DNA of 64,000 bases, taken from NCBI GenBank assembly GCA_041650835.1, contig JBAZKL010000002.1, positions 410,435 to 474,434 on the forward strand, read 5' to 3'. A program made the translations under genes and the position numbers. The DNA is from Candidatus Omnitrophota bacterium. Its GTDB lineage: Bacteria > Omnitrophota > Gorgyraeia > Gygaellales > Profunditerraquicolaceae. This document shows positions 2,323 to 59,265 of the stretch, one piece after another. How positions within the stretch are numbered: position 1 is the stretch's first letter; every line of letters begins with the position of its first letter. The notes beneath the pieces were generated by a model. It was not told where the DNA came from. It saw only the letters and a program-made list of their open reading frames with translations, and did not search any database.

Positions 2323-2682
2323 ATGAAGACAATTCTAATATGTGAAGATGAAAAATTCGCGCAGGAATCAATTAAGAATATTTTCGTAAAAAGGAATTTT
2401 ACCGTTCATACTGCCGGAGACGGAGAAGAATCCATTGAAAAAGCGAAAGAAACGAAGCCCGATGTAATCCTGTTGGATATCCGCATGCCTAAACTCGACG
2501 GCATTGAAGTAGCTAAAGAAATCAGAAAATTCGACACAAAAGCAAAAATTATCTTCATAACCGGCTTTCAAAGCCAGGAACTATCCAAAGAAGCCTCAAA
2601 ATACGACATATCGGATTATATCGTAAAACCAACCACTCCACAAGACATTATTCAGGCAGTCGAAGCGGCTCTCGCGTCATAG
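2323..2682 (+). CDS. single-domain response regulator receiver (CheY-like)
   Basis: Receiver-domain motifs are present: ILICEDE, DVILLDIRMPKLDG and IIFITGF. The protein is 119 aa with no output domain. It follows the XRE gene after a 20-nt gap. Confidence 0.85.
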   Translation: MKTILICEDEKFAQESIKNIFVKRNFTVHTAGDGEESIEKAKETKPDVILLDIRMPKLDGIEVAKEIRKFDTKAKIIFITGFQSQELSKEASKYDISDYIVKPTTPQDIIQAVEAALAS

Positions 2683-2739
2683 TAGTCAATAGTCCACAAG
2701 CCGATTGTCCGCAAATAAGCTACACTCCGCTACCACCGT

Positions 2740-2791: not shown

Positions 2792-12577
<9,786 letters not shown>

Positions 12578-13052: not shown

Positions 13053-15029
13053 TTACAGGCTTTTCTTTACTAACCATATAACCGGCTCTAACACAATACG
13101 CACGAAAGCAGTAACGACAGACCCGGAATAGATCTTTTTTGCTAACTCCGGGCTGTGCCTATAATAAAACTCAACAAACCTTTTTCCATATCCATTGGAT
13201 AACAAATATTTATCCCGGAATAATCTTAAAACCTTTACTTCTGAAGCATCATAAGAACCATATACAGCGGTCGCTATAAAACATCCTCCTCCGCCACCGC
13301 CACCGCTGTCGGTTGATCCGGAAGTATTGGCCCCCGTATTAGCAAATACCTCGTTGGAATACAGAGAATTTGAGCTGCCACTGTAGGCGCGTACCCGGTA
13401 ATAATAGGTAGTACTACTGCTTAACCCTGTATCGCTGTATGAAGTTACGTTTTGACCGAGATCAGCTATTTGGCTATAGGTACCCGACGAACCCTCTTTT
13501 CTTTCCAGTTTAAAACCCTCTTCAATACCGGAATTATCGGTCCAGGCCAGATTAATAGCGCTTACGGATACCACGCTCGCAGTCAATCCTGACGGAGCAG
13601 CAACAACGTATATTTCAGCAGGTATAGTATTGCCTAAATATTCCCAAATATATTTTGTAAGCGTCGTCCCATCAGCACAAAAACCCCGGGTAGTAATATT
13701 TATTAGAGGCGCTACTCCCGCAGGAGGATCGTTGGTTTCCCTGAACAAATCCCTGAGCGCATCTTCATACGGCCACGGCCAAAGGCTGTCGCCGCTCAAA
13801 GTATCGTAACCAACTTCACCATAGAGGGTTCCTGAAGTCCCCATCCGCTTCTCTATGGTTGCGCCCTTTCCTACTTGAGGCGAACGCACAATATAAGAAA
13901 ATTCTACGGTATTCAAATTAGCCGTTCCCATGACCGAACTCATATTAACAATCGAAACACCATCCACCATGATATTATCAACGGCTTCACAAAAGCTAGC
14001 CCCATCATCTCCTCCATCGATAGGTTCAGTAGAGGTACAGTTATAAGCGCCAGATATTCCACTCGCAAGATGGCGCCACCACATCCCGTTATCGCTATCC
14101 CAATTAAGACAGTGCGTGTTACTATTATCGTGCGAAAGGCTGTCTTCGGAAGAATGAAAACCATATCCGTGATTCTTTAGACTAATACAGCCGTAGCGAT
14201 GCACATGCGAAGTCTCATGAGGCGCGCTAAAGCCGCCGGTAAAGGTAGCGCCAGTGCCATCGTTGCCGTCAAGGGCGATACAATTCTGTAACAGGATCTC
14301 ATCGTTAGGCGGTTCACCAGAAAAACCTCCGTATACAACGATAGCAGCACGAGGCTGCGCGGTCGTACAATAATCCCAGCGGACAACTACCCGGCGAGCG
14401 ATATTGTGGTGGCTGTCGCTACCGCCTCCAATCAATACGGAATACCGAGCCATGCCACACACAAACACATCTTCGATCAAACAATAGGTGCTTGAACCTA
14501 TATTAACTCCCCCTCCATATTCAGCTCCCGACCAGACTCCGTTTTTAATACCGATCCTCATAAGCCGGCAATGATCGCTTCCATTTACTTCTACAGCCGA
14601 CATCGCGTATACGCTAGACCCCGTACAATTCTTAATAACAAACCCCTGCAATGTAACATAACTTTTATGATACAAATTCACCGGTCCCTCTTCATTAATT
14701 GGAGCAGTCCCGGAATCTAACTCTGACAAAATAACGCCAAAGTCATTTTCAGCTTTTACAGTCGTGTAATGACCGGCAGACCCGCTAGGAATCCCCCGTA
14801 TCCTATTATTGTTACCCGTATAGGTCCCATCTTTAATGATCAGAGTATCTCCCGAGCCCAGCAACTGGATACCGGAATAAATGTACTTTTTTGCTGTTCC
14901 CCATGAAGTCCCGTTACCGGCGTCATTAGCCATCGCTCCATCGACATAGTAGGTAGCTGCATGAACAGTTCCAGGACGCATAAAAAAAATAACACAGCAG
15001 CATACAACCCCCATAATTATTCTTTTCAT
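13053..15029 (-). CDS. secreted beta-helix protein (658 aa), paralogue of the giant protein: beta-helix domain, FN3 domain, poly-Gly, same conserved C-terminal domain
   Basis: The signal peptide ends in ...VHA. The N-terminal roughly 450 aa align with the giant protein's N-terminus (YYVD...[27 protein letters not shown]...). An FN3-like segment matches LTASVVSVSAINLAWTDNS...YYYRVRAYS. The C-terminus is [35 protein letters not shown]... Confidence 0.85.
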   Translation of the reverse strand: MKRIIMGVVCCCVIFFMRPGTVHAATYYVDGAMANDAGNGTSWGTAKKYIYSGIQLLGSGDTLIIKDGTYTGNNNRIRGIPSGSAGHYTTVKAENDFGVILSELDSGTAPINEEGPVNLYHKSYVTLQGFVIKNCTGSSVYAMSAVEVNGSDHCRLMRIGIKNGVWSGAEYGGGVNIGSSTYCLIEDVFVCGMARYSVLIGGGSDSHHNIARRVVVRWDYCTTAQPRAAIVVYGGFSGEPPNDEILLQNCIALDGNDGTGATFTGGFSAPHETSHVHRYGCISLKNHGYGFHSSEDSLSHDNSNTHCLNWDSDNGMWWRHLASGISGAYNCTSTEPIDGGDDGASFCEAVDNIMVDGVSIVNMSSVMGTANLNTVEFSYIVRSPQVGKGATIEKRMGTSGTLYGEVGYDTLSGDSLWPWPYEDALRDLFRETNDPPAGVAPLINITTRGFCADGTTLTKYIWEYLGNTIPAEIYVVAAPSGLTASVVSVSAINLAWTDNSGIEEGFKLERKEGSSGTYSQIADLGQNVTSYSDTGLSSSTTYYYRVRAYSGSSNSLYSNEVFANTGANTSGSTDSGGGGGGGCFIATAVYGSYDASEVKVLRLFRDKYLLSNGYGKRFVEFYYRHSPELAKKIYSGSVVTAFVRIVLEPVIWLVKKSL

Positions 15030-31633: not shown

Positions 31634-33579
31634 TCTTGTTCTAAAACGTATTTCTTCATCAAAGAGGCGATGGAAGTATAATTAACCTCCCACCACTCTG
31701 AAGACAGACGAGAATCCGGCCCTTCTCGATACACAATATGATGCAACCAAAACATCACCAAGAGAGGCATGAACAATCCATCAGGAACATCTAAAGCAAC
31801 CTGGTATTTTTTTAAAAGTCCCGACTCGAACTCATTGAGATTTAAAGGAAGAAATTTATTCGCAAAGACCTCGCTGATATTGCGTTGGAGGAACAAAACA
31901 TCATTATATCCGAACAAATAGAGAATATCGAGAAGCGGCAAACCTTCTTTCCGGGAAAGGTCCCAATCAATGATCCCCTTGATCCGGAATGTACCGGGGG
32001 AAACGATAAAATTATCTATCTTATAATCCCCGTGCATCCAAACCAAATTAAGCCTTCTGTTCAACAGCCGCTTCTTTACATAAACCTCAAAGTCTTCCAA
32101 TGTATCGACTATTCCTCTTTTACGAAGCATAGCCCTACAATCACTAAAATAACCTGAGAAATAAGCGTCAAAAACCTCGACATCGATAAAAATCGACCGC
32201 GAGGTAGCCATATGAAAGTCGATGAGCGTTTCAACGGCCTGAAGCATGCATTCATTTATATGGGACGACTGATTAGTAAGCGTGATACCCAAGAGCTCGG
32301 TTTCAACGAAATACTTCTTTCCCTGATGTTCGCCTTCCGCTAATGCCGCCGGAACTTCCTTTTTGAGAATATCGTTGACCTGCCGCAAATTTCTCAATAT
32401 CTCAAAATTATCCATACAACGCTTAAGCCCCTCTTCGTTCAGAGGGATACGAATTATAGCCCCCCGTTTCTCGTTATCAAAATCAACCATAAGCAGTATA
32501 GTATGGGCGCTGCATATAAGGAATTTCTTTATGGAAATACGACATTCCGGAGCAAATCTTCTTCTATAATCATCAATAATCTCTTCAATGAATGACACAT
32601 ATCCCGTGTCAAAAGAGATTAAAACACCCAGGGCCGGAGCGAAATACTTAAAAAATCTCGAGCTTACTACAAAATATTTGATCAACTCCCGAAGACCTGG
32701 CTGGCGTTTATACTCATAGGGTTTTACCGAAACATCAACGATCTCTTCAGCAAACACCGATTCCGGCATTAACAAATAAGTCTTGTGAATCTTCAATGAT
32801 TCACTGCGAATCAATCGTTCTATATCAACCAGAGAAAAAGGCCTTTTTTCATTCAAATTCCGATTAACAATGAACCTCCCCATTCGATTTTTGAAGCTCA
32901 CGAATATAAATCCTGTCGGCGAGACCACGCGTGCGCATTCCTTCATAAGCGACTCAATAAACGTCATTTCAACTTTTCGCATTACGGGCCACTTTGTATC
33001 CCAGAGATTCTCAATGTTATGTAAAACGATCCCGTCAAAGAATGATTCGCGGAAAGGTAAGTGCTTTGCTGGACTTACCCGGGCAAAGCTTATGTTCTTT
33101 ACCCCTTTCAATGCTGCCCTCTCCTTGATGCATCGCACCATGTCCATCTCAGGATGCAAACAATAAACCCGTTCATAATCCTGCGCCAAAGACAATGTCG
33201 TCGTTCCGAACAAAGTATCGATCGTAAGCAGCCTTTTCCTGTTTTTTATGCTTAAGAGAAACTTAAAAGCAGCGCGTTCTTCCTGAAGCAGTTTAATCAT
33301 ATTAATGCTCACCTTTGGCGGTACTTTATCAAGAAACTCATGCAGCCCCACTTTCCATCCTAAACGCAGTACCGCTTCGGGCAGAGAAACCGCTGTCGAG
33401 GATGAATGAGTTTCCTCGCGCGAAACAGTCATCTTTCCCTCCGAGACAAGATCTATCACTCCGTCAGTAAAAACAAAAACACTACCGCATTTTTCACACG
33501 TAAAAACCTGCGTGTCGTCTACAAGTTCTCCGAAACAATTCGGGCACAGGAATTCCGATTTATCGGGATACTGTCTCAT
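31630..33579 (-). CDS. multidomain protein: N-terminal zinc ribbon, methyltransferase-like Rossmann region, C-terminal aminoglycoside/choline-kinase-like phosphotransferase (APH fold) domain
   Basis: The N-terminal zinc ribbon reads CPNCFGEL...CEKCG. A degenerate motif I (LLTIDTLFGTTTL) and an FDGIVLH segment suggest a methyltransferase-like region. The C-terminal kinase motifs are WMHGDYKIDNFIV and IIDWDLS. The protein is 649 aa. Its gene overlaps the upstream gene by 4 nt. Confidence 0.6.
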   Translation of the reverse strand: MRQYPDKSEFLCPNCFGELVDDTQVFTCEKCGSVFVFTDGVIDLVSEGKMTVSREETHSSSTAVSLPEAVLRLGWKVGLHEFLDKVPPKVSINMIKLLQEERAAFKFLLSIKNRKRLLTIDTLFGTTTLSLAQDYERVYCLHPEMDMVRCIKERAALKGVKNISFARVSPAKHLPFRESFFDGIVLHNIENLWDTKWPVMRKVEMTFIESLMKECARVVSPTGFIFVSFKNRMGRFIVNRNLNEKRPFSLVDIERLIRSESLKIHKTYLLMPESVFAEEIVDVSVKPYEYKRQPGLRELIKYFVVSSRFFKYFAPALGVLISFDTGYVSFIEEIIDDYRRRFAPECRISIKKFLICSAHTILLMVDFDNEKRGAIIRIPLNEEGLKRCMDNFEILRNLRQVNDILKKEVPAALAEGEHQGKKYFVETELLGITLTNQSSHINECMLQAVETLIDFHMATSRSIFIDVEVFDAYFSGYFSDCRAMLRKRGIVDTLEDFEVYVKKRLLNRRLNLVWMHGDYKIDNFIVSPGTFRIKGIIDWDLSRKEGLPLLDILYLFGYNDVLFLQRNISEVFANKFLPLNLNEFESGLLKKYQVALDVPDGLFMPLLVMFWLHHIVYREGPDSRLSSEWWEVNYTSIASLMKKYVLEQE

Positions 33580-37206: not shown

Positions 37207-38205
37207 TCACTCCTTAAGGATACCCAACCGTTTTTTTACCGATTCGACCGAATCCGCATTGGCGTTCTCTTTCATTTTTTCCAACCCCTCGTTCCTACCC
37301 ATTTCTCCGCTCCTAACCATCCCCGCTATCTCATAAACATACGGGTGAAAACCAAAGCGCTCTATATGCACTAAATTTGCGTAGGAATTCATTACACAAT
37401 TGGTAGAATTAGAATCAAGGCCTTCCGGGAAAATCCAACCCAATGTCTTGATCTTTTCAATGATTTTCGTCTCATTATATTCCATGAATGCAAGCGGACT
37501 GACATTATACGGGAAATCTTCATTACGAGCAAACTGTTCTTCATTAAGAAAATACCGATTAAGCTCATCACCAGCAACTTGATGCATCGGTTTCCGGTAG
37601 GTTTCCTGCGATGCTTTAAACAAAGCAGGATTTATCTTCATGATGGAAGACCGGATCGGCGACTGTCCCGGTGACCAACCCCAGCCCATCATAGGGATTC
37701 GTTTTTCCAATGCTATCTTTAAGAATGAAAATTTAATAAGGCCGATACAGGAATTACATATTGTACTTGCCCGCTCTAACGCTTTCGAAGAATACATTGA
37801 CTCTTTAATGCCCGCGGCAAAGATCTTCTTGAGAAGGTGAAAATTAATTTTATAAACAATGCTGTCAACACCAAGGTTCTCTGTAACGGTACGGATATTT
37901 TTAAAAGCCTGATCAGAAACAAATCCGTTATCGAATGTCAACGGCAAAACTCGCAATTTAAAAACTTCTTTTAGCAGATAAAGCGTATAGGTACTGTCTT
38001 TTCCGCCGGAATAAGAAACCGTACAATCATAATCGCTTTTACCCTTACATTGAGCGATCAACTCTTTAAACTTAGCCAAATATGTTTCCTTTTCTTCCAT
38101 TAATTCTTCTTTTTTGAAACCACGGCAGAAGTTACAAACACCTTTTTCATCAAAATTGATACCGGGGAAGGTTTCTGGAAGTATACATTTGGTACAAATC
38201 TTCAT
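37207..38205 (-). CDS. N-acetyl sugar amidotransferase (PP-loop ATP pyrophosphatase family, WbuX-like)
   Basis: An N-terminal Cys4 cluster (CTKCILPE...CNFC) is followed by the PP-loop SYSGGKDSTYTLYLL. The ATG at 38205 (MKICTKC) is preceded by AGAGG. The upstream 21 codons of the tabulated ORF (VSLRGARSATKQS) are a translation of the intergenic repeat. Confidence 0.75.
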   Translation of the reverse strand: MKICTKCILPETFPGINFDEKGVCNFCRGFKKEELMEEKETYLAKFKELIAQCKGKSDYDCTVSYSGGKDSTYTLYLLKEVFKLRVLPLTFDNGFVSDQAFKNIRTVTENLGVDSIVYKINFHLLKKIFAAGIKESMYSSKALERASTICNSCIGLIKFSFLKIALEKRIPMMGWGWSPGQSPIRSSIMKINPALFKASQETYRKPMHQVAGDELNRYFLNEEQFARNEDFPYNVSPLAFMEYNETKIIEKIKTLGWIFPEGLDSNSTNCVMNSYANLVHIERFGFHPYVYEIAGMVRSGEMGRNEGLEKMKENANADSVESVKKRLGILKE

Positions 38206-38218
38206 AATTGACCTCTTT

Positions 38219-40258
38219 TTAGATTGCTTCGTCGCACTTCGCGCTCCTCGCAATGACACTTGCACCAATAACCTCTTTTACCACTATATCCTCATTATTC
38301 TGGTGCCCTGGGGTACTGGGAAACTGACGACTATTTTCAACTATAAATTGTTTATGCAATAAGAGTGCTGTAATAATACCGACAATAGCCATGTTGTCTT
38401 TGGCGCTCAATAATGATGTATCTGTTGTTTTACATTTTTTTACCAGATTAGTAACCATTAAAGGGTCAAAATAATTAGTTTTCTTTAAGTTGTTCTCTGA
38501 TAACAGCTCATCAACATATGCATGCTCTTTACCGTGAAAGAAACTCGCGCTATCAGGAGACCTGTACCCTTGTTTTTTTCGGTTACATATCTCTTCCGGT
38601 AAATAGGGCTTGGCGATTTTCTTTAAAAGATACTTTTCGTTCATTACTTTCAGCTTCATTTGAGGAGGAAGCTTCACGCAAAACTCAATAACCCTATAAT
38701 CGAGAAAAGGAAACCTTCCCTCCACAGAATTAGCCATCATCATTCGATCCCCTTGAGAAGATAAAAGGTTACCTGAAAGTAACGTATTTGCCTCAATATA
38801 TTGTGCCTGAGAAAGACTATCCCAATTTGAAAATTGTTTAGAAAAAGACTCTTCAAAATTATCAGTACTTTTGCAATCATTTAGCTTATTCTTAACATCA
38901 CTTGAAAATAACGATTTAATTCTTGAAGTTATATCCCATCTCGGTAAATGCGAATAAGATTTTGAATCTGTTTTCAACAAATGATTGCGATAAAACCCTT
39001 CCAAGAAAGCAGAAGTTGACTTTGGCCAGTTTGGTATATAGCTGTAAAGTTTTCGCATTAACAAAAACCTTAATCTTGAATCAGGATGTTTTGCCCAAAA
39101 ACGCCGGATCTTCATCTCTCGAAAAAGGTCATAACCGCCTAATATCTCATCAGCCCCTTCTCCGGTAAGTACAACTTTGATATTATTCTGACGCACGAGC
39201 TTAGATAAAATAAATAAAGGAGCCGGCGCGGTTCTGATCAATGGTTTCTCCGCGTGCCAAACAACCTCAGGGATTATCCCACCAATATCAGAATATCCAC
39301 AGGTAACACCTTTATGTACTGTTCCGAGAAACTCAGCCATGTGACGCTGAAAAGCGCCTTCATCGTAATTAGAATCGCTAAAGCTCACGGAAAAAGTTTC
39401 CAATTTATTATTAAAATGTTTTTTAACTAACGCGGTAATAAGTGAAGAATCCAACCCTCCGCTTAAATACGCTGCCACAGGAACGTCAGCGCGCAAGCGA
39501 AGCTTTATAGAATCTTTCAATAATTCAAGCAATTCCGACATATATTCATTTTCGCTTCTTTCTTTGGTTTGTCCGGGAGTATAAAAATCAAGTTCCCAAT
39601 ACCTTTGGATATCAATAGTTTCTTTACGCGCGAGAAGATAATGCGCGGCAGGTAATTCTTTTATTCCTTCAAAAACGGACTGTTCGCCAACCGTCGCCCA
39701 GAAAGTAAATAACTGATCAAGGCCTTTCAAATCAATTAAGCGCTTTACGCGGGTATCGCTAAAAATAGCCTTAATTTCTGAAGCAAATATCAAAGAACCA
39801 TCAACTGAGGTATAAAAAAGAGGGCGAATCCCCATCCTATCCCTGGCTAAAAGCAGGCTCTTCTGCCTGATATCCCAGATCGCGAATGAAAATTGGCCGT
39901 TTAAATCGGCAAACATCCCAGTTCCTTTTTCTTCATAAAGGTGGATGAGGACTTCTGTATCAGAATTGGTATAAAACCGGTGACCTTTCTTTAATAGTTC
40001 TGCCCGGATCTCCAGATAATTAAAGATCTCACCGTTGAATACGATCCAAATGCTCTTGTCTTCATTATGCATTGGCTGTTGTCCACCGCTGAGATCGATG
40101 ATACTTAACCGGGCATGACCCAATCCGATGTCAGCATCTTTGTATATGCCGAACTCGTCTGGGCCGCGATAGCGCATAGTGGTTATCATGCGCTTGAGGA
40201 GTTCGCTGTCTATTGGATGTTGTTTGGTTAAGTTTAGGGTTCCGGCTATGCCGCACAT
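38219..40258 (-). CDS. asparagine synthase (glutamine-hydrolysing) family amidotransferase, second copy
   Basis: MCGIAGTL at the preferred start provides the Cys nucleophile. The PP-loop is SGGLDSS. The tabulated start at 40330 adds 24 codons that are translated from the heptamer repeat. Confidence 0.85.
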   Translation of the reverse strand: MCGIAGTLNLTKQHPIDSELLKRMITTMRYRGPDEFGIYKDADIGLGHARLSIIDLSGGQQPMHNEDKSIWIVFNGEIFNYLEIRAELLKKGHRFYTNSDTEVLIHLYEEKGTGMFADLNGQFSFAIWDIRQKSLLLARDRMGIRPLFYTSVDGSLIFASEIKAIFSDTRVKRLIDLKGLDQLFTFWATVGEQSVFEGIKELPAAHYLLARKETIDIQRYWELDFYTPGQTKERSENEYMSELLELLKDSIKLRLRADVPVAAYLSGGLDSSLITALVKKHFNNKLETFSVSFSDSNYDEGAFQRHMAEFLGTVHKGVTCGYSDIGGIIPEVVWHAEKPLIRTAPAPLFILSKLVRQNNIKVVLTGEGADEILGGYDLFREMKIRRFWAKHPDSRLRFLLMRKLYSYIPNWPKSTSAFLEGFYRNHLLKTDSKSYSHLPRWDITSRIKSLFSSDVKNKLNDCKSTDNFEESFSKQFSNWDSLSQAQYIEANTLLSGNLLSSQGDRMMMANSVEGRFPFLDYRVIEFCVKLPPQMKLKVMNEKYLLKKIAKPYLPEEICNRKKQGYRSPDSASFFHGKEHAYVDELLSENNLKKTNYFDPLMVTNLVKKCKTTDTSLLSAKDNMAIVGIITALLLHKQFIVENSRQFPSTPGHQNNEDIVVKEVIGASVIARSAKCDEAI
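38222..38262. repeat. GC-rich repeat (GATTGCTTCGTCGCACTTCGCGCTCCTCGCAATGACAC)
   Basis: It belongs to the same family as 2740..2777 and 47530..47570. It supplies the C-terminal 12 codons (VIARSAKCDEAI) and the stop codon of the upstream asparagine-synthase gene. Confidence 0.65.
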
Positions 40259-40280: not shown

Positions 40281-40350
40281 TGGTCACAAGACACATGACA
40301 CAGGTCTATAGTCCACAGTCCATGGACCATAGACTATGGACTGTAGACTA
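40281..40350. repeat. composite repeat: TGGTCACAAGACACATGACACAGGTC followed by inverted heptamer units (TAGTCCACAGTCCATGGACCATAGACTATGGACTGTAGACTA)
   Basis: The head segment is nearly identical to 57544..57569. The heptamer part is palindromic around AGTCCATGGACT. It provides the last five codons and the stop of the acyl-CoA ligase gene. Confidence 0.75.
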
Positions 40351-41806
40351 ATTCGCTTCTTCTAATTTTACCGGTTGAAGTTTTAGGTAATGAGTTACGA
40401 AATTCTACAACTTTAGGTAATTTATATGCGGCAAGGTTTTGTTTGCAAAATAGTAACACATCTTTTTCATTCATATTTGCGCCATTCTTAACCACACACA
40501 ATTTAATTGCTTCTCCTAAGATCTCGTCAGGAACCCCTACTGCGGCACATTCTAATATCCCCCGCATACGGCAAACCACTTCCTCTATTTCCAAGGGGCT
40601 TATCCGATTAGCCCCGCTTTTGATCATTTCTTTCTTACGGCTCACATGATAAATAAAACCCTCTTCATCAATTTTCGCTAAATCTCCTGTCCAAAGGCCT
40701 TCTTTCTTTAAAACCTTTTCTGTTTCTTCAGGAGAATTCCAATATCCTAACATTATATTTGCTCCCCTGGCTGTAATTTCACCTATTTCTCCAGTTTTAA
40801 TCTTACTGCCAGTTTCATCTAAAAGATCCAGTTCTACCCCCGGAATGGCTTTGCCGATCGAACCAGACTTTTTAACTAACAATTCAGGTTCCAAATAGGT
40901 CAACCTTGCGCTGGCTTCGGTTTGTCCATACATTACGTAAAACTTAATTTGCGGGAATAAATCCTGAAATTCCTTGATCATAGAAGGAGCCATAGCCCCT
41001 CCAGCTTGAGTTACATAACGCAACGTGATCAATGGATACTTACGCAGCGCTGATTTATGGAGTAAAATCGTATAATGCGAAGGTACACCGGCAAATCCGG
41101 TTACCTGCTCCCTTTCCATAAGATCTAAAACCACATTAGGATAGATAAAACGGTTATCAATGACCAATGCCGCTCCTGACTTCATATGGGTAGTTAACAG
41201 TGAATTACCATAGGAATAATAAAAGGGAAGGATAACCATCATTCGATCAGATGCCGTTATCCGCAAATAATTAATAATGGAATCCGCGTTGGCATCAAGG
41301 TTGCGGTGAGCGAGCATGACCCCTTTAGGCTTTCCCGTTGTGCCGCTGGTATAGATGATCATGGCGAGGTCGCTGTCGCTTAGTCCATAGTCCATAGTCC
41401 ATAATCCACAGTCCATAGTAAAATCAAATGAATCGATTAAAATGACTGAATTCTTATCAATTAAACCTACTAAGGACTGATTATGAGAAGAATCGGTAAT
41501 GACAAATTTAGGGGTACAATCTACAAGAAGAACACCTAATTCTCTGGGGACCAATTGGGTATTTAGGGGTACAACTACTCCGCCAGCTTTCAAAATCCCA
41601 AAGAAAGAACAAACATACTCAGGGGAGTTTTCTAAGAGCAGCGCAACCCTATCGCCTTTTATAAGCCCATTCTCCGCTAAATAACCAGAGACAGCATCAG
41701 AACGCAGAGCGAGTTCCTCATAGGTAAGGCGCTCTTTCTGATAAATAATAGCTATATTTTCAGGATATAGCTGAGCGTTCTTTTGTATATATTCATAGAG
41801 AAGCAT
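40334..41806 (-). CDS. acyl-CoA/acyl-ACP ligase (AMP-binding adenylate-forming enzyme)
   Basis: The AMP-binding motif IIYTSGTTGKPKGV is present, followed by YGQTE and GDLA...DEEGF motifs. The protein is 490 aa. It contains an in-frame insertion translated from a (GTCCATA)n heptamer array (FDFTMDCGLWTMDYGL). Confidence 0.85.
   Translation of the reverse strand: MLLYEYIQKNAQLYPENIAIIYQKERLTYEELALRSDAVSGYLAENGLIKGDRVALLLENSPEYVCSFFGILKAGGVVVPLNTQLVPRELGVLLVDCTPKFVITDSSHNQSLVGLIDKNSVILIDSFDFTMDCGLWTMDYGLSDSDLAMIIYTSGTTGKPKGVMLAHRNLDANADSIINYLRITASDRMMVILPFYYSYGNSLLTTHMKSGAALVIDNRFIYPNVVLDLMEREQVTGFAGVPSHYTILLHKSALRKYPLITLRYVTQAGGAMAPSMIKEFQDLFPQIKFYVMYGQTEASARLTYLEPELLVKKSGSIGKAIPGVELDLLDETGSKIKTGEIGEITARGANIMLGYWNSPEETEKVLKKEGLWTGDLAKIDEEGFIYHVSRKKEMIKSGANRISPLEIEEVVCRMRGILECAAVGVPDEILGEAIKLCVVKNGANMNEKDVLLFCKQNLAAYKLPKVVEFRNSLPKTSTGKIRRSELVYSP
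41381..41419. repeat. intragenic heptanucleotide array (TAGTCCA/ATGGACT x ~5) inside the acyl-CoA ligase ORF
   Basis: The plus strand reads tagtccatagtccatagtccataatccacagtccatagt. It is in frame at present. Confidence 0.8.
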
Positions 41807-41819
41807 ACGCCACCCGCCC

Positions 41820-42092
41820 TTACTTACCCTGTTTTCTCGCTATAAAAGAAGTCAGATTATTCAAAGAATCTAAATTATCAGGCAATAATTCATCGTCTTC
41901 AATCCTGAAACCGAAGGTTTTCTCGACAAAACTGACAACCTCAAGTATACCGGTAGAATCAATTATGCCTTTGGCCATGAATGAATCATCATCATTGAGG
42001 GTTGAGTCATTCCCTAACAAAAAATTTTCTTTAATAAAGTTCTTCATATCCTTTTTAATCTGTCCCTCAGGTAATGCTTCCATTGGTTCCAT
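41820..42092 (-). CDS. acyl carrier protein
   Basis: The protein is about 90 aa and acidic. A candidate phosphopantetheine-attachment Ser lies in GIIDSTGILEVV. The ATG at 42092 is preceded by GGGAGGA. The tabulated start at 42107 is a TTG. Confidence 0.7.
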   Translation of the reverse strand: MEPMEALPEGQIKKDMKNFIKENFLLGNDSTLNDDDSFMAKGIIDSTGILEVVSFVEKTFGFRIEDDELLPDNLDSLNNLTSFIARKQGK

Positions 42093-42130
42093 TGCTAATC
42101 CTCCCAAAAATGACTATAATTGATTTTAAA

Positions 42131-44297: not shown

Positions 44298-45254
44298 TTA
44301 TTTATTAAACGCAACCTTAAACCAAGCTACCGTACGACGTAAACCTTCTTCAAAGTTTACCCTCGGCTCAAAATTAAGGACTTTCCTGATTTTTGAAATA
44401 TCAGCCAGGGTGCGAAAAACATCTCCCGCGCGAACCGGCAATAATTTCGGCTCGATATTCTTGCCGATTATCTTATTTATAAGCTCGACTAATTGTAATA
44501 CAGTGTTGTCTTTGCCGTTAGCGACATTTAGAACTTCATGTTTGATGCCCGGAGTCGTAGCCGCGAGGACATTTGCTTCCACAACGTTATCAATAAAGGT
44601 GAAATCCCTTGATTGTTTACCCGTGCCGAAAATCGGAGGTTGCTGGTCATTCAGGATACAATGAATGAATTTCGGGATAACGACGGCATATTCATCATCC
44701 AAAGCCTGCCGCGGCCCAAATACGTTAAAATACCGAAGACACACCGTTTCCACCCCAAAATGCTCGGAAAAGATCCTGCAATAATATTCATTAGCTAATT
44801 TGCTCAAAGCGTATGGTGAAATTAAAAGAGGATAATCTCCTTCTGACTCCGGGAATTTGCTTGTGTCTCCGTACACTGAACTTGATGAAGCCATGGCAAA
44901 ACGCTTAATTTTATTCTCGCGGGCGGCTTCCAACATATTCAACGTACCATCAATATTTACCTTATTATATTCGTGAGGAGCAGTCATCGATTTAGGCACA
45001 CTGCGTAAAGCCGCCTGGTGTAAAATAGCGTCAACTCCTTGAGTAGCTTTTAAACAAGTATCTTTATCGCAAATATCTCCTTTGATGAGCGTGTAGCGTG
45101 TAGGGTTCAACGAATAGTTCTTTGTAAAAGACAAATTTTCTTCTTTGCCACTTGAGAAATTGTCCAATACAACAACGTCATGCCTGTCTTTAAGCAAACG
45201 TTCAACAATATGTGAACCGATAAAACCTGCACCTCCAGTTACTAGAACTTTCAT
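44298..45254 (-). CDS. NAD-dependent nucleotide-sugar 4-epimerase (GalE/WbpP-like)
   Basis: The protein begins MKVLVTGGAGFIGSH and carries the YALSK catalytic motif. It is 318 aa. Confidence 0.85.
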   Translation of the reverse strand: MKVLVTGGAGFIGSHIVERLLKDRHDVVVLDNFSSGKEENLSFTKNYSLNPTRYTLIKGDICDKDTCLKATQGVDAILHQAALRSVPKSMTAPHEYNKVNIDGTLNMLEAARENKIKRFAMASSSSVYGDTSKFPESEGDYPLLISPYALSKLANEYYCRIFSEHFGVETVCLRYFNVFGPRQALDDEYAVVIPKFIHCILNDQQPPIFGTGKQSRDFTFIDNVVEANVLAATTPGIKHEVLNVANGKDNTVLQLVELINKIIGKNIEPKLLPVRAGDVFRTLADISKIRKVLNFEPRVNFEEGLRRTVAWFKVAFNK

Positions 45255-45269
45255 CTTAATTCACTCCTT

Positions 45270-45310
45270 GTTTAGTCCACAGTCCATAGTCGATGGTCCA
45301 TAGTCTATAA
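45270..45310. repeat. intergenic heptamer-type repeat (TAGTCCACAGTCCATAGTCGATGGTCCATAGTCTATA)
   Basis: It belongs to the same GTCCATA/GACCATA family as 40308..40350 and 41381..41419. Confidence 0.7.
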
Positions 45311-45317
45311 TTGATAG

Positions 45318-45911
45318 TTATTTCCTTACAATCAAGCGTGCGGGAACACCGACAACTACCCCGCCGTCAGGCACATGTTTATTCCTTGTTACCACCGCTC
45401 CTGCGCCCGTCATAGCTTTTCTTCCTACATTCACCGGAGCTACTAAGATCGAGCCACTCCCTATAAAAGCCCCTTTTTTAATACGAGTCTGGTGCTTATT
45501 TTTCCCGTCATAGTTGGCTACAATAGTGCCGGCGCCGATATTAACCCCTTCTTCCACAAAAGTATCTCCGATATAGGTCAAGTGCTTTACTTTAGACCCG
45601 CTTGAAATAATGGAGCGCACTATTTCAACAAAATTACCGATTGTAACATCATCCTTCAAAGTAACACCCTTACGAATACGCGCGAAAGGGCCGATGGCGC
45701 AACCTTTTCCGATCTTAACATCTGATTCTATGATCGTCGATGGATAAACCACGGTATCAGCGCCGATCTTCACATTTTCACCGATATGAGTGGTAAAGGG
45801 ATCGATGATTCTGACCCCTTTAGCGATAAATTTATAATTACGCGTGATGCGCTCTTTGTCTAACTGGATCATTTCTTCGATTATTTTACCGTTAGTGTTT
45901 TTCTTCTTCAT
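45318..45911 (-). CDS. left-handed beta-helix acetyltransferase resembling the C-terminal acetyltransferase domain of GlmU
   Basis: The segment ANYDGKNKHQTRIKKGAFIGSGSILVAPVNVG closely matches the GlmU LbH-domain consensus (NYDGxNKxxTxIGDxxFxGSxxxLVAPVxxG). The protein is 197 aa and stand-alone. Confidence 0.65.
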   Translation of the reverse strand: MKKKNTNGKIIEEMIQLDKERITRNYKFIAKGVRIIDPFTTHIGENVKIGADTVVYPSTIIESDVKIGKGCAIGPFARIRKGVTLKDDVTIGNFVEIVRSIISSGSKVKHLTYIGDTFVEEGVNIGAGTIVANYDGKNKHQTRIKKGAFIGSGSILVAPVNVGRKAMTGAGAVVTRNKHVPDGGVVVGVPARLIVRK

Positions 45912-50723: not shown

Positions 50724-51617
50724 TTATTGTGTCGGCCTTGTAGGAGTTCTTATAGCTGTAACTGCTCCCGTCCCGGTAGTTGCCGCGGCTGCGCCGCTTG
50801 CTGCCGCTGTTAAAGGTTCGGTAACCGGATTAATGATCCGGGTAACTTTTGCCATTATAGTTGAAGGAACATATAGCACATCCCCGGGATGCATATCGAT
50901 ATTCTGTTTAAGATTCCCTCCATAAAGTAGGGAATATAAATTAACGTATTTAGTTTTGGGGTTGCCTTTCTTATCTGGAGTGATCAAACGGCATTTCCGC
51001 GTAGCGGATGCTATCGTAGGAAGCCCTGCTTCAACAATCGCTTCCCGTACAGGAATAGTTTCAGAACGCATATAATATTTACCCGGCCGGCCCACTTCTC
51101 CTAATACGTAGTAAACTTTACTACGGTATTCTAAGATAGTGACGTTAACTTCAGGATTGACCGCATAAGTTGATATCAATTGTTTTATTTTAGCCTCTAG
51201 TTCCTTTTTTGTCAGGCCTGTTACCACAATATCTCCAACATAATTATACTGAACCTTTCCCTCTAAATTAACAGGGAAAACTCCGCTGAATTCTGAATGA
51301 CGCTGAATGGTTATCTCAATAATATCATCAGGGCCCAGGGTATAGACCACTTCTTCATTGACCTTAACGGCTTTAGCCTCTGGAGCGGGCTGAACAAGTT
51401 GCTCTTGAGCCTGGGCTTCGGTCTTTACTTGATTCTGCGCCTGATCTACCACTGGAGTCACTTGAGCAGGTTCCTGAACCGTAGACTGAGTAACTACTAC
51501 GGTTTCTTGCTGTGTTTTAGTTATAGTTTCTTGAGCGTTCACCCAGGAAACACAAAAAAAACATATAATAAAAGCTAAACTTAAGCTAAATTTCTTTACC
51601 ATTTCCATCCTCCTCAA
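50724..51617 (-). CDS. polysaccharide export outer-membrane protein (Wza-like; Poly_export + SLBB domains)
   Basis: It has a signal peptide and a Poly_export-like region (YTLGPDDIIEITI...). An SLBB-like segment is present (PGDVLYVPS). The start is ambiguous among M1, M4 and M6. The gene overlaps the 51586..51786 gene by a few codons. Confidence 0.8.
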   Translation of the reverse strand: MRRMEMVKKFSLSLAFIICFFCVSWVNAQETITKTQQETVVVTQSTVQEPAQVTPVVDQAQNQVKTEAQAQEQLVQPAPEAKAVKVNEEVVYTLGPDDIIEITIQRHSEFSGVFPVNLEGKVQYNYVGDIVVTGLTKKELEAKIKQLISTYAVNPEVNVTILEYRSKVYYVLGEVGRPGKYYMRSETIPVREAIVEAGLPTIASATRKCRLITPDKKGNPKTKYVNLYSLLYGGNLKQNIDMHPGDVLYVPSTIMAKVTRIINPVTEPLTAAASGAAAATTGTGAVTAIRTPTRPTQ

Positions 51618-51786
51618 AAAAGATTATAGTTTCTTTAAAGTCTTTAAGCTTTCTGAAATCCTGCTTATCGTAAATCCTCCAGCCTCGCCAATCACGCTTA
51701 GGCTGTTGGACTTTACCGGATTTCTCCCAGCGCACGATCGTTTTAGGAGTTACTCCGATCCGATCTGCAACATCCGTTATGGTCAT
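51586..51786 (-). CDS. small MerR/excisionase-family HTH DNA-binding protein
   Basis: The sequence MTITDVADRIGVTPKTIVRWEKSGKV matches the excisionase/MerR-type HTH signature. The ATG is at 51786. The tabulated ORF starts at a GTG at 51801. Confidence 0.55.
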   Translation of the reverse strand: MTITDVADRIGVTPKTIVRWEKSGKVQQPKRDWRGWRIYDKQDFRKLKDFKETIIFFEEDGNGKEI

Positions 51787-52247
51787 TTTGCTGTTTGCCA
51801 CCGCATCCCCCTTGTAGTATTATATAACTTAACTGTCCTACTATGTCCTGGTATGTCTAGGTCTGTCTGATAAGTACATATATATAATATATAAGCACTA
51901 TCCATGCCAAGTCAAGCATTTAATTAAACAATTAACAATAACGACTGTAACCTATTTAAGATAAAATACTTATGGATGTTCTGCGATTTCGATAAATTTG
52001 CAGAAAACGGAGGTAAAACAGGGATGTTGCAGAAATGAAACTTTCAACTTTAGATCAGATTTTGTTATTGCTACGGAATGCCTACCTTAAGTTACTGCAG
52101 AACAAGGCGTTATAATGCGTGTTGCTTTATGTAAACAGATGTTGATTAACATTAGAGAAAAGGTGACAATCACAACACCCTTGCGCAAAAGTCGTGAAAG
52201 TCACCTTTCTCCGAAAACCGCTAACTGAATTTACTTAAGCTCCGATG

Positions 52248-52785: not shown

Positions 52786-52844
52786 CGCACACCTCCCTTT
52801 ACCTATATATGTAATGACCTTGTATCCTTAAAAAGATTGCTTCA

Positions 52845-52870
52845 CCCCTTCGGGGTTCGCAATGACACAA
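52845..52870. repeat. CCCCTTCGGGG hairpin + TTCGCAATGACAC repeat fragment
   Basis: It belongs to the same family as 2740..2777, read directly in the sequence. Confidence 0.55.
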
Positions 52871-55961: not shown

Positions 55962-57524
55962 TTAGAATGAATCCAATGGTTTTTTTAAATACTCGGGGAT
56001 TTCCTTATCGATCAATGTATAAAAATTAGATAAATGCGTGCGGAAAAGTTTATCGAACCTCCCCCCGTCATCGCCATCGCCGTACCACCAGAACCAATCG
56101 CTGCCTTCACAGATGTACATCTGCTTCCACGCTGTTTCACTGACGGCCCCGCCTGAATCAAGTATCTTTTTTAATTCTTCCCGGGCAAGCGCTAAATATT
56201 CCCAGGCGCGGACCTTATAGGGGTTGCCGATCCATTTCGCGAAATCGCCATAGATCCATGACCCGGTGCCCAAAGTATCGATTTCATGTTTAGCGGGGAA
56301 TCTTTCCAGGTATTCAGAAACGGTAACAGTTTTTAAGAATGTTGATTCGGAAAGCTTCTGATACAATACGTCCAGGAAATCATGCCCGTCATTGGTAAAG
56401 TGCTCCCAGGCATTCTCTCCATCCATGGCTATCGTCACCAGAACATCTTCATGCTTAAAAGCGTTGGCGATATTCTCCAGATGCTTTAAAAGGTCGGCTA
56501 CCGCGTCCTGCGGCTTCCAATCATGATAGACAAATCCGATCAAATCGGAAAGGTTACGGTCCCTGAATATTATATTAAGATCTCCTTCCCGGCGTTTTAG
56601 AAGATGCGGCTGGTATAATAACGCGGTATCCCTCTTCTTTTTTTTCAACGATTTAAAAAGGATCGCTTCATCAGTAACGATCCATTTAACCCCCGATTGA
56701 ATAAAGAACGGCAGCACCTGCTCGCAAACCGACTCTTCAGACGGCCACATACCGGCCGCAGGGGCCGCGAACCTGTTTTTAAAGAACTCAAGGGCGCTCT
56801 TGACCTGCGCCAAGGCATCCTCAGGGTATGCGAACGGGATGCTCGGCAATATTGTTTTAGGATTGGCGTCCCGCGCGGTATTAGTGCTGTATAAAAGAGG
56901 CAGTATCGGATGGTAATAGGGGCTTACCGTAACCTCGAGCTGTTTACCGGCAACACATTTCTTGTACGCGGGGATAATCTCGTCAATGATCTCGAACTGT
57001 TTATCAAGGACGGTAAGTTTATCGTCTTCGGAGAAAAACCTGGCCTTATTCACGATAGCCCGCAATTCAGGCACATTCCGGCGAAAATACGGGTCAAACC
57101 ACGCCAAATTGAACCAAACCTGCAGGTCTAAATAATCCTGAGTGCTGTACTCCTTACGATGTTCTTTCTTAAAGAATAATTCATAATACCGGGGATGCAT
57201 CGCGATAACTTTATCCCGGTTGATCATGAAAAAGTTATTCAGGATAAACTCTTTTTCTTCAAGAAGTAACTCAGCCGCGGGTTTATACGAAAGCTCTAAG
57301 AACTTATCTTTTATTATTCCATGCGAATAATCTTCTAACTGCTCTAATAAAGACGGGACAAGATTAAAAGTCAAGTGGACTTGAGGATATTTCTCAACGA
57401 TCTTGAGCATGTCCAGGTAATCTTTTATCGCGTGCAGGCGTACCCAAGGCAACTCAGTCTCCTGAGTAATGAGGTTCTTGTAGTACGGTTGGTGCATGTG
57501 AAAGATTATGGCAAGATAAAGCAT
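55962..57524 (-). CDS. glycoside hydrolase family 57 protein (glycogen branching-enzyme-like)
   Basis: The N-terminal IIFHMHQPYY is the GH57 signature. The 520-aa length is typical of GH57 branching enzymes. A WxxxGSDWFWW-like motif lies near the C-terminus. Confidence 0.85.
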   Translation of the reverse strand: MLYLAIIFHMHQPYYKNLITQETELPWVRLHAIKDYLDMLKIVEKYPQVHLTFNLVPSLLEQLEDYSHGIIKDKFLELSYKPAAELLLEEKEFILNNFFMINRDKVIAMHPRYYELFFKKEHRKEYSTQDYLDLQVWFNLAWFDPYFRRNVPELRAIVNKARFFSEDDKLTVLDKQFEIIDEIIPAYKKCVAGKQLEVTVSPYYHPILPLLYSTNTARDANPKTILPSIPFAYPEDALAQVKSALEFFKNRFAAPAAGMWPSEESVCEQVLPFFIQSGVKWIVTDEAILFKSLKKKKRDTALLYQPHLLKRREGDLNIIFRDRNLSDLIGFVYHDWKPQDAVADLLKHLENIANAFKHEDVLVTIAMDGENAWEHFTNDGHDFLDVLYQKLSESTFLKTVTVSEYLERFPAKHEIDTLGTGSWIYGDFAKWIGNPYKVRAWEYLALAREELKKILDSGGAVSETAWKQMYICEGSDWFWWYGDGDDGGRFDKLFRTHLSNFYTLIDKEIPEYLKKPLDSF

Positions 57525-57543
57525 AGGATATTTAAGATTACAG

Positions 57544-57622
57544 GGTCACAAGTCACATGACACATGTCTTTAGGTGTTCTTTAGTCTTTAGTCTTGTGTC
57601 TTGTGTCTTGTGTCTTGTGTGT
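57544..57622. repeat. composite repeat: GGTCACAAGTCACATGACACATGTC head + heptamer array (TCTTTAG)x3(TCTTGTG)x4
   Basis: The head is nearly identical to 40282..40306. The heptamer periodicity was read directly (gtctttagtctttagtcttgtgtcttgtgtcttgtgtcttgtgtgtg). Confidence 0.8.
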
Positions 57623-57770
57623 GCCGCTTGCTGTCCAGAAAGGACGCACCCAGCGTTCCTCTTAAGCTGGGGTGCTGCGGCAACTTACACCCGGCGCTAA
57701 TCGCACCCCGCCTAATTGGTGTGGCGGGGTACGCCGCTTGCTGCGGCGGTATTGCGCCGGTGTGTTGTTT
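57623..57770. other. GC-rich structured intergenic island (possible small ncRNA)
   Basis: The GC content is locally far above the flanks. Several short hairpins are present: GTCC-agaaa-GGAC, CCCAGC-gttcctcttaa-GCTGGG and CACCCCGCC-taattggtgt-GGCGGGGT. The motif CCGCTTGCTG occurs twice as a direct repeat. Confidence 0.3.
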
Positions 57771-57812
57771 TCTACAACAAAAAACCCTCGGGGGAGAAAA
57801 TCCCCCCGAGGG
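57771..57812 (-). terminator. rho-independent terminator of the outer-membrane-protein gene
   Basis: The minus strand reads CCCTCGGGGGG-attttct-CCCCCGAGGG followed by TTTTTTTTGTTG. It lies 25 nt downstream of the stop at 57838. Confidence 0.75.
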
Positions 57813-57837
57813 CATTATAATTACTTGATCACTACTA

Positions 57838-59265
57838 TTAGAATGTCACCTTCATAGAACCGATTACCTGGGTCGCCTTCTTATTATTCTCAGCTGAGAA
57901 TACATTACCCGGCATGAACACTCCGGTATTTAAACCGAACTGTACATCTTCAGTATAATCATAGGTAACACCTAAATCAACTTCACTACCAAGATACTTC
58001 TTGCCGCCTTTTACCACGTAGGTAGGATCACCCGCGACTCCCGAGAAATTAACCGCAGAAGCACCGGTAAAAGAATGGTTAAGCCTTAAATAATAATAAT
58101 TCAACGCTATTTTTAAGTCTTCCATCGGCTTAATGCTGCCATTAAGGTTCAACAACTGCGCATTCGAATACCCTAAGATCTTATTGAATAAGGTCCCGCC
58201 TGCCTGATCTTCGTACATCGGATCCCAACCTCTATAGGTATCGGCAGTGCTGGCAGCTTTATCACCTGAAAGGAATGTATAGCTACCGCCAATGCTTGGG
58301 GTATATTTCGTGCTCGGCATCATCATATTCGCTACCGCTTGAAGAGCATACGCGGTAACTTTACGATTTAATCCGGTGTTTGAACCTTCATTCGGATACA
58401 AGGTTGTATTTGCCTGATGTTCGCCAAACTGGAAAGCAGCTTCCAAACCTAACATACAATTCTCGATACCGGTAAAAGCTAACCTGGCACCGGTTGTATT
58501 CAGGATCTCGGAGCTGGATATGCTTGCGACGCTTCCGCTATCTCTGTTTCTGGAGAACAAGTAAACTTCGGCATTCAAGTTCTTGTCAATCTCGAAGCCG
58601 GCGTTTACTCCGTACAAATTGATATCATTATCGATCGCGACGCTATTTTCAGTGATCTTGGAATAAATAATATCAAGCACCAAAGGATCGAAATTCAAAG
58701 TTGCCCTGATCGCGTCAAACGCTTTGCTGCTGCTTAAATCATCCAAGGAATCAGGTAAACCATGCTTATCGGTAGTACCATGTCCATCACCAATACCATT
58801 GGTTGTAGAGTCACCGATTATCAAACCATTACCGAATTTCATTTCCTGACGGCCGATGCTTAACGTTAAATGAGGATTCAAGAATTCTTTTAACGTAACA
58901 TACGCCAAGTCCAGGTCGATCTCGGTAGTATTGGCAACCGTAGTTGTTCCTGCGGCATTAAGCTGATTTGTCGCTCCCCAAACTCTTTCGTTCAATAATC
59001 TGACTACGGTAGAGACATTATCGGTAAGGTCAGCTTCAACTTTGACCCTGACGTTTGAAATTAAGGCCGTGATCTTACGGCTGAAACCGCTCGCGGTCAC
59101 ACCGCCCAGATCAGGCGCTTTCAAAGCCAAATAATTTCTATCAACGCCCATTACCGTGATATCTCCGCTAACTTTCACATTCTGGACCTCTGCGAATGCA
59201 GTAAAAGCCATTCCGACTACAAACGCAAGAGCAAGTACTACGATTAAACGTTTACTCATTTGCAT
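57838..59265 (-). CDS. outer-membrane beta-barrel protein (porin-like)
   Basis: The signal peptide is MQMSKRLIVVLALAFVVGMAFTAFA. The sequence has an alternating amphipathic beta-strand pattern rich in G/S/T/N/Y. The C-terminus ends in a Phe (...SMKVTF). Confidence 0.65.
   Translation of the reverse strand: MQMSKRLIVVLALAFVVGMAFTAFAEVQNVKVSGDITVMGVDRNYLALKAPDLGGVTASGFSRKITALISNVRVKVEADLTDNVSTVVRLLNERVWGATNQLNAAGTTTVANTTEIDLDLAYVTLKEFLNPHLTLSIGRQEMKFGNGLIIGDSTTNGIGDGHGTTDKHGLPDSLDDLSSSKAFDAIRATLNFDPLVLDIIYSKITENSVAIDNDINLYGVNAGFEIDKNLNAEVYLFSRNRDSGSVASISSSEILNTTGARLAFTGIENCMLGLEAAFQFGEHQANTTLYPNEGSNTGLNRKVTAYALQAVANMMMPSTKYTPSIGGSYTFLSGDKAASTADTYRGWDPMYEDQAGGTLFNKILGYSNAQLLNLNGSIKPMEDLKIALNYYYLRLNHSFTGASAVNFSGVAGDPTYVVKGGKKYLGSEVDLGVTYDYTEDVQFGLNTGVFMPGNVFSAENNKKATQVIGSMKVTF

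Follow-up and report, generated by a model that had tools for sequence, protein, structure and literature searches.

The DNA considered here is a 64-kb stretch (hereafter the window) of a Candidatus Omnitrophota bacterium, positions 410,435 to 474,434 of contig JBAZKL010000002.1 in assembly GCA_041650835.1; all coordinates below are those of the window. It has 43% GC and carries a long minus-strand run of sugar-nucleotide and polysaccharide genes. One gene of the region encodes an acyl ligase whose open reading frame (ORF) contains a tandem array of heptanucleotide units translated in frame, and related heptamers are found at the end of the same gene and in nearby spacers. The features are collected in Table 1.

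The ligase is an ANL adenylate-forming enzyme with AMP-binding and AMP-binding_C domains and an intact A3 motif, YTSGTTGKPKG. Its nearest solved relatives are malonyl-CoA and fatty-acyl-CoA synthetases (3e-71, PDB homologues), and its best NCBIfam match is TIGR03098, the exosortase-A-associated acyl-CoA ligase, at 386 bits, which is under the cut-off of 592. A protein 100% identical to it is encoded in a Candidatus Omnitrophota metagenome-assembled genome, on an 868-kb contig. The gene is followed by an asnB-type amidotransferase gene and then by a WbuX-like amidotransferase gene, and from this context a role in polysaccharide modification is plausible.

Table 1. Positions of repeats, signals and genes in the 64-kb window
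Feature	Position	Strand	Remarks
AMP-binding (ANL family) acyl ligase, 490 aa	40334–41806	-	PF00501 1.7e-85; PF13193 3.1e-16
In-frame heptamer array, 39 nt	41381–41419	-	Tandem Repeats Finder (TRF): unit TAGTCCA, 5.6 copies, 87% matches, score 64
Palindromic heptamer run	40304–40350	.	GTCTATA GTCCACA GTCCATG, then inverted units
Head GGTCACAAGACACATGACACAGGTC	40282–40306	.	Three nGnCACA-type heptamers; 24 nt upstream of asnB start codon
True asnB-type amidotransferase start (M-CGIAG)	40256–40258	-	TIGR01536 aligns from protein residue 2
ACP (acyl carrier protein)-like ORF	41820–42107		Before ligase in gene order; ACP model matches
Intergenic GTCCATA-family array, ~5 units, headless	45274–45310	-	Fills transferase-epimerase spacer
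Second in-ORF heptamer site, CTACACG x2.3	45088–45103	-	TRF; NAD-dependent epimerase 44298–45254, variable loop ~aa 50–56
Second head copy, then GTCTTTA and GTCTTGT heptamer runs	57544–57622	.	Motif scan, TRF
Terminator-like hairpin, 12 pairs, 9 GC, T-run	57784–57813	-	After gene 57838–59265
Short GTCAATA/GTCCACA run	2678–2700	+	Abuts TAG stop of receiver-domain ORF 2323–2682
Copy of GTCATTGCGA-hairpin repeat	38222–38257	-
Copy of GTCATTGCGA-hairpin repeat	2740–2777	+
Copy of GTCATTGCGA-hairpin repeat	52835–52866	-

On the coding strand the ligase array consists of units ACTATGG, ACTGTGG and ATTATGG, and its codons read ACT ATG GAC TGT GGA TTA TGG ACT ATG GAC TAT GGA CTA. It encodes residues 130–142 of the protein (TMDCGLWTMDYGL) and ends nine residues before YTSGTTGKPKG. 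An initial annotation, made from the sequence alone, had placed a heptamer array here within the ligase ORF, as the period of 7 found by TRF confirms. It was also right in setting the translated peptide upstream of the AMP-binding motif, but the FDF in that peptide is encoded by the flank, outside the array. No more than three consecutive units are perfect. A further claim, that one unit more or less would shift the ligase frame, holds: loss of one unit leads to a stop at aa 139 and gain of one unit to a stop at aa 162, both of which precede motifs A3–A10. An AlphaFold model computed with the orthologue alignment as input has a mean predicted local distance difference test score (pLDDT) of 82. 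Residues 127–146 are modelled as coil, and the block 131–140 has a pLDDT of 60 while its flanks are at 90 or above. The array segment matches a gapped variable region in the alignment with solved ANL enzymes.

Orthologues from related loci (numbered L001 and so on), which represent different species rather than strains of one species, reveal period-7 DNA at the same loop. It is present in eleven ligase genes, that of the window included, at 60–84% protein identity, and in all eleven it lies directly 5′ of the codons for SDSDLAMIIYTSG. The loop units fall into at least six genome-specific families: ACTATGG/CCATGGA (window, L001, L089 and L002), AACTATT (L164), GAGCTAT (L165), TAGCTAT (L166), ACTGGGG/ACTGGAA (L163 and L083), CCTGMAG (L167) and ATGAACC (L168). 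The L167 unit was first predicted from the 7-aa periodicity of the peptide ACSLKPAACS and then confirmed in the DNA. The reading frame is kept in all eleven arrays. Loop length is identical in seven of them and differs by whole codons in the rest; within the L163/P0017 subclade, loop lengths are 7 aa apart, which corresponds to three units. In distant homologues (36–49% identity, from other phyla; outgroups among the matches listed) the loop is without period 7. Orthologues without the periodicity also have a variable loop there, similar in length to the array-bearing one. Thus the ligase array is not a net insertion, and the orthologue alignment does not support the proposal that this segment was inserted into the gene. 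Frame breaks in the ligase of L150 were considered as a possible heptamer effect and rejected, as the breaks are free of heptamers and the gene, on a short contig, is only distantly homologous.

A neighbour-joining tree has the array-bearing ligases spread over several subclades and interleaved with array-free ones. The arrays of L002, L164, L165 and L166 have positional variants in common, with CCAT in upstream units and CTAT in downstream units, and the last three bases of the unit change in concert in each genome. Identity between units within the window array is 0.89, as against 0.40–0.54 for same-position identity to L164–L166. The shared positional variants, together with the concerted change of units, are the apparent signature of an old array that evolves in concert.

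Three successive heptamers cover all three reading frames, and translation through a unit therefore requires that none of its registers contain a stop. This holds for TATGGAC (read as YGLWTMD), ACTGGGG, CTACACG and CTCCGAA. In the reverse orientation, GTCCATA reads VHSP*, with TAG in every register within seven codons. Because GTCCATA ends any entering ORF within seven codons, the ligase ends in VYSP* in the window and VHSP* in L001, and the short plus-strand run stands at the stop codon at 2682. Units TAGCTAT, GAGCTAT and AACTATT, of L166, L165 and L164, respectively, hold a stop in one register, and their copies in the ORF are altered exactly at the stop-bearing register; L166, for example, has TAT CAG instead of TAT TAG.

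The heptamer element at the 3′ end of the ligase gene (40282–40350) is a row of ten heptamers: the three nGnCACA-type units of the head, three GTCyAyA units and four inverted units. Within its palindromic run, GTC TAC AGT CCA TAG encodes V-Y-S-P and the stop codon of the ligase. The run does supply the stop codon, as the initial annotation had stated, though with four terminal residues and not five. Equally, an ATG at 40330, within the repeat, opens a spurious 24-aa extension of asnB (MVHGLWTIDLCHVSCDQ...) ahead of the real MCGIAG start at 40258, as had been suspected. The L169 locus supports the latter start, as it has a homologous ATG TGT GGC directly after its ligase. The inverted heptamers of 40304–40348 fold into an RNA hairpin of ∼20 bp (-34.4 kcal/mol, z -4.3, with none of 200 shuffled sequences as stable), which may form an intercistronic structure in the mRNA. 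A Rho-independent terminator was considered for 40304–40350 and rejected; the hairpin is strong but no U-tract follows it, and the terminator scan makes no call. A promoter-like match in the 40282 head is weak (9/12) and is not reproduced at 57544.

The closest comparison for an empty site is L169 (ligase P0003), which has 75% identity, is fully syntenic and comes from a 646-kb contig. No strong period-7 array is found in its 21 kb. The L169 ligase ends in RRNELV*, and 11 nt containing GGAG follow before the asnB ATG; its spacer between the hexapeptide transferase and the epimerase is 21 nt. Since L169 is without the intergenic arrays, the intergenic elements of the window represent insertions of ∼50–80 nt, as had been proposed, and the native end ELV* implies that the element at the ligase 3′ end displaced the native stop. 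The boundaries of the insertions relative to L169 coincide with the heptamer runs.

The ligase loop of L169 (gene 10001–11407) has two GGGACTGTCCC palindromes and a 22-aa deletion in place of heptamers, and in L083 and L163 a GGGACTGTCCC-type palindrome lies beside the heptamer array. Palindromes of the GGGACTGTCCC / GGGGAACCGTCCCC kind in the ligase loop are translated as RDCPRF, GDCPRF, LGTVPIF or EGEPSPS, and the ligases P0005, P0011, P0013 and P0020 have the same palindrome-type peptides in this loop. These palindromes are a second repeat class that appears to have colonized the ligase loop, and small repeats have thus come to rest in this loop repeatedly.

In the window as a whole, period 7 stands out. 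There are three strong period-7 arrays, with 0.02 expected from simulations, and no strong arrays of periods 4–6 or 8–11. The sequence GTCCAYRGTCYAYR, with at most one mismatch, has 15 matches as opposed to 0.27 expected; HIP1 occurs only three times, and the organism is not a cyanobacterium. GTCCAnA-type units are found at four sites, namely the ligase array, the ligase-stop element, the 45274 spacer and the 2678 run, so the suggestion that one heptamer family spans coding and intergenic DNA is correct. The designation GTCCATA/GTCTACA given to that family is not confirmed in its second half: GTCTACA occurs twice in the window, once in the arrays (as TGTAGAC at 40342) and once at 33517. The intergenic arrays at 40282–40350, 45274–45310, 57544–57622 and 2678–2700 all adjoin start or stop codons. 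That at 45274 fills the gap which separates the hexapeptide-transferase stop codon (45318) from the epimerase's Shine-Dalgarno sequence and ATG (45254), and an array is present at the orthologous spacer in L001 and absent in L169. The element at 57544 is placed between the terminator-like hairpin and the start of an ORF (55962–57524) whose N-terminal sequence FHMHQPYY we take to resemble GH57. The folds of 57525–57640 (z -1.6) and 45255–45320 are no better than those of shuffled sequences, Rfam has no match at any array, and promoter and terminator consensus scans are at background level.

The head motif, GGTCACAAG(A/T)CACATGACACA(G/T)GTC, matches the window only at 40282 and 57544 (the latter copy being 57544–57568). 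The two copies extend for 25–30 nt, with three mismatches, are 17 kb apart and are wholly different beyond 30 nt. The headed element had been described as recurring at two further positions; a head is indeed present at 57544, though units of other sequence (GTCTTTA and GTCTTGT) follow it, and the 45274–45310 array is headless.

Related genomes also have units in common between coding and intergenic sites. L001 has GTCCATA-type units at three sites: its ligase loop, whose array contains four perfect units, its ligase stop (ELVHSP*) and the orthologous spacer. In L165, units of an ATAGCTG-like kind make up the loop array and recur both where the ligase ends and in the upstream spacer. In L166 the loops of the ligase and of the neighbouring epimerase have AGCCATnAGCTATnAGCTATCAGCT (∼26 nt) and the peptide AISYQL in common. 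The epimerase loop is a second conserved in-ORF site, with CTACACG x4 in L001, CTCCGAA x4 in L002 and CAGCTAT units in L166. An apparent split of the L001 epimerase was examined as a frameshift and proved to be a run of N.

The epimerase of L002 (2700–3683) has in addition an in-ORF CTCCCAA x4 array (L002:3392–3433), which corresponds to a genuine insertion of 11 aa (KLPTPNSQLPT) when compared with the window epimerase; at the point of this insertion the L163 epimerase has an unrelated one. The CCTGCAG/CCTGAAG family is intergenic, just after the ligase, in L002 (5490–5518) and in frame in the ligase loop in L167 (1949–1994). Unit families are in this way common to different genomes in different contexts, intergenic in L002 and coding in L167.

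Period-7 arrays are abundant across the lineage. In 207 kb of Omnitrophota-like loci, those with a ligase of 60% identity or more, there are 22 such arrays (10.6 per 100 kb); the density is 0.69 per 100 kb over 1.3 Mb from distant genomes and zero over 570 kb from other metagenome loci. No such excess is displayed by periods 5, 6 and 8–11 (∼0–1).

These properties can be accounted for if the ligase array is a heptamer microsatellite, tolerated in a disordered loop and evolving in concert, and if insertions of heptamer repeats have remodelled gene ends; we consider this probable. The array would be the translated member of a tandem heptanucleotide family that is found throughout this Omnitrophota branch. 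Heptamers may occupy DNA that is free of selection, namely the gaps between genes of one direction and those surface loops of enzymes that are unstructured and hypervariable. The ligase array, in the disordered linker before the P-loop (A3), would predate the divergence of orthologues to ∼60% identity. Slippage and gene conversion within the array may keep the 7-nt period while the unit sequence drifts in each genome, and conversion probably also takes place with other arrays of the same genome. Purifying selection would retain only those lengths that are a multiple of 3 and without an in-frame stop, and the open orientation (TATGGAC) of the ligase array would be due to this selection for frame and against stops. 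An intergenic array inserted at the 3′ end of a gene would shorten or lengthen the ORF by a few codons and supply its stop, as at 40334–40350.

Several points weigh against this interpretation. The coverage of the genome is limited to 64 kb. The orthologous loci were identified through intact proteins, and the sample is therefore biased against frameshifted (OFF) alleles; a search for truncated alleles with the N-terminal 139 aa gave two unrelated fragments and did not recover the parent protein itself. Period 7 is absent from the loop in L084, L086, L087 and L088, which are at 64–68% identity. One ancient array with losses and recurrent gains are both possible. In favour of the interpretation, third-codon-position identity to the window is higher in the array than gene-wide (0.92 and 0.68 for L001, 0.85 and 0.63 for L089, 0.77 and 0.43 for L002, 0.62 and 0.42 for L164), in a comparison of 13 array sites only. 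Gene conversion between arrays is inferred from the sharing of units. Finally, low-frequency length variants may occur at the ligase array.

The initial annotation had proposed a slipped-strand phase switch. The ligase would then be a contingency locus, in which heptamer slippage turns the enzyme, and hence polysaccharide modification, ON or OFF, as in neuO, the capsule O-acetyltransferase gene of Escherichia coli K1. We regard this as improbable. The unit length is indivisible by 3, the stops created by one unit more or less precede all catalytic motifs, and the ligase belongs to a surface-polysaccharide cluster, a typical class of phase-variable gene. The four perfect units of L001 point the same way, as do the loops of the L163/P0017 subclade, whose difference of three units indicates that in the course of evolution units have been both added and removed. 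Known heptanucleotide switches, however, have 6–53 perfect units, vary among strains of one species and are OFF in most genomes (PMC13001214; PMC2651432). The neuO gene has 3–53 AAGACTC units among strains, with 65.6% of genomes OFF (PMC13001214), and the heptanucleotide tracts of Haemophilus influenzae have 6–38 units (PMC2651432). The ligase array resembles that of neuO in being a heptanucleotide repeat translated inside a gene for a polysaccharide-modifying enzyme, with the full-length product made only in frame (PMC13001214). It differs from the perfect units at the 5′ end of neuO in having 5.6 imperfect units at codons 130–142 of 490, with a perfect run of only three, and in a loop length that is the same in seven of eleven genes across species, all eleven being in frame. 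Heptamers are likewise found in the loop of a housekeeping-type epimerase and in intergenic DNA. The ligase array is not supported as an on/off switch by the sequences compared.

A second possibility is an active, genome-wide process in Omnitrophota that writes and homogenizes heptamer arrays and overwrites the same unconstrained loops of conserved enzymes, those of the ligase and the epimerase, again and again with whichever unit family the genome currently has. This is unlikely in our estimation. Such a process could consist of ectopic conversion among arrays or of some template-copying activity. If true, it would be a natural mechanism for rewriting loops, and not the passive persistence of one old microsatellite.

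It is distinctly doubtful that a mobile mini-element, comparable to a miniature inverted-repeat transposable element (MITE) or a Rickettsia palindromic element (RPE) and with the head as its end, was recently inserted into the ligase ORF and the intergenic sites. Compared with L169, the intergenic elements are insertions, the two head copies differ by three mismatches over 25–30 nt at a distance of 17 kb, and the same ligase loop has taken up GGGACTGTCCC palindromes in L169, L083 and L163. There is also a precedent for in-frame insertion in the RPEs, small repeats found in frame within unrelated enzymes where the fold allows it (PMC10969869), and the ligase array resembles RPEs and intragenic MITEs in this respect. 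Yet the array in the ligase ORF is headless, is found at the same site down to 60% identity and brings no added length compared with array-free orthologues. Its units vary continuously and are not copies of one master. RPEs, moreover, are palindromes of ∼150 bp that have a conserved peptide and add length, whereas the ligase array is a 39-nt tandem without net length gain or element ends. With two window copies of the head and none in 166 related loci, the claim that the repeat is mobile is weak; no terminal inverted repeats, target-site duplications or defined ends were seen at the head copies, although no dedicated or systematic search for them was made.

That the peptide repeat [TA][MI]xYxL is itself a selected ligase motif, with the DNA period as a by-product, is very improbable: a loose [TA]-[MI]-x-Y-x-L-S-D is common to the window, L002, L164, L165 and L166, but a 7-nt period reads one heptamer in three frames, which selection at the protein level cannot yield, the same units are present in non-coding spacers, other orthologues carry unrelated peptides (GDWKLGTGNWGTG, ACSLKPAACS) or no repeat, and the loop is modelled as low-confidence coil.

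Heptamer families as such are known. Heptameric simple sequence repeats are reported to be over-represented in many bacterial genomes and have been described from Xanthomonas and Nostoc, where they are dispersed, lie mostly between co-directional ORFs and less than 50 bp from ORF ends, overlap stop codons in some cases and occur less often than expected within coding regions (Rehm et al., 2015; PMC4692102). To judge by its title, as given in PMC2858038, for a paper by Vioque (1997), heptamers of the short tandemly repeated repetitive (STRR) class are also located inside the cyanobacterial RNase P RNA gene. The Omnitrophota heptamers resemble the STRR sequences of Calothrix, Nostoc and Anabaena and the GGGNATC and GGGGA(C/T)T repeats of Xanthomonas in being few-copy, 7-nt units that are dispersed, lineage-specific and near ORF ends. 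The likeness to STRR is one of description; the units here are GTCCATA, GTCTTGT, GACACAn and CTACACG. They differ from the cyanobacterial and Xanthomonas heptamers in their host phylum, in units that are not G-rich and have no G-quadruplex potential, in an in-frame copy kept at one loop across species and in units common to this copy and intergenic arrays. No relevant paper on heptamer repeats in Omnitrophota emerged from a literature search. New here are the host phylum, the fact that an in-frame array has long been kept at one loop across species, and the sharing of units between coding and intergenic arrays.

Heptamer families, known mainly from cyanobacteria and Xanthomonas, also pervade an uncultured phylum. 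The ligase calls for caution in that a unit length out of frame is, by itself, no basis for calling a phase switch; the comparative data here point in the opposite direction. The locus also offers a tractable case of concerted tandem-repeat evolution under the constraint of a reading frame, of repeats that reshape gene ends, by replacing stop codons and creating false starts that mislead annotation, and of which protein loops tolerate arbitrary sequence.

Other small repeats and genes were observed. The class GTCATTGCGA-(hairpin)-GAAGCAATC has three copies in the window where none is expected. From the copy at 38222 come the C-terminal residues of asnB (VIARSAKCDEAI), its stop codon and a spurious TTG start (38268) of the following gene, the real ATG of which is at 38204. 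A sequence related to this repeat is found after the ligase in L001. Small genes matching PF05635 (23S_rRNA_IVP, or bAvd-like four-helix bundle) are scattered in the polysaccharide clusters of L163, L165, L166 and L167. In L163 they are at 41–454, 5120–5500, 11932–12354 and 13424–13777, and heptamer arrays at 467–498, 5079–5110 and 5476–5511 directly flank them. In Coxiella, too, variable heptameric repeats lie ahead of the ORF of the intervening sequence (PMC4990558).

On the minus strand, 2792–12577 encodes a giant secreted-type protein of 3261 aa with ∼9 tandem domain repeats of 270 nt (90 aa) at 6154–8662 and a run of 13 glycines (a CCG/CCA repeat, 3033–3071) just before its C-terminal segment. 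Irregular direct repeats with a period of ∼8–10 nt (TGTCCTACTA / TGTCCTGGTA / TGTCTAGG / TCTGTCTG) are found at 51831–51869, upstream of a small helix-turn-helix-like ORF (51586–51801) whose positional equivalent in L166 and L169 matches Pfam MerR. These repeats are more operator-like than heptamer-family-like.

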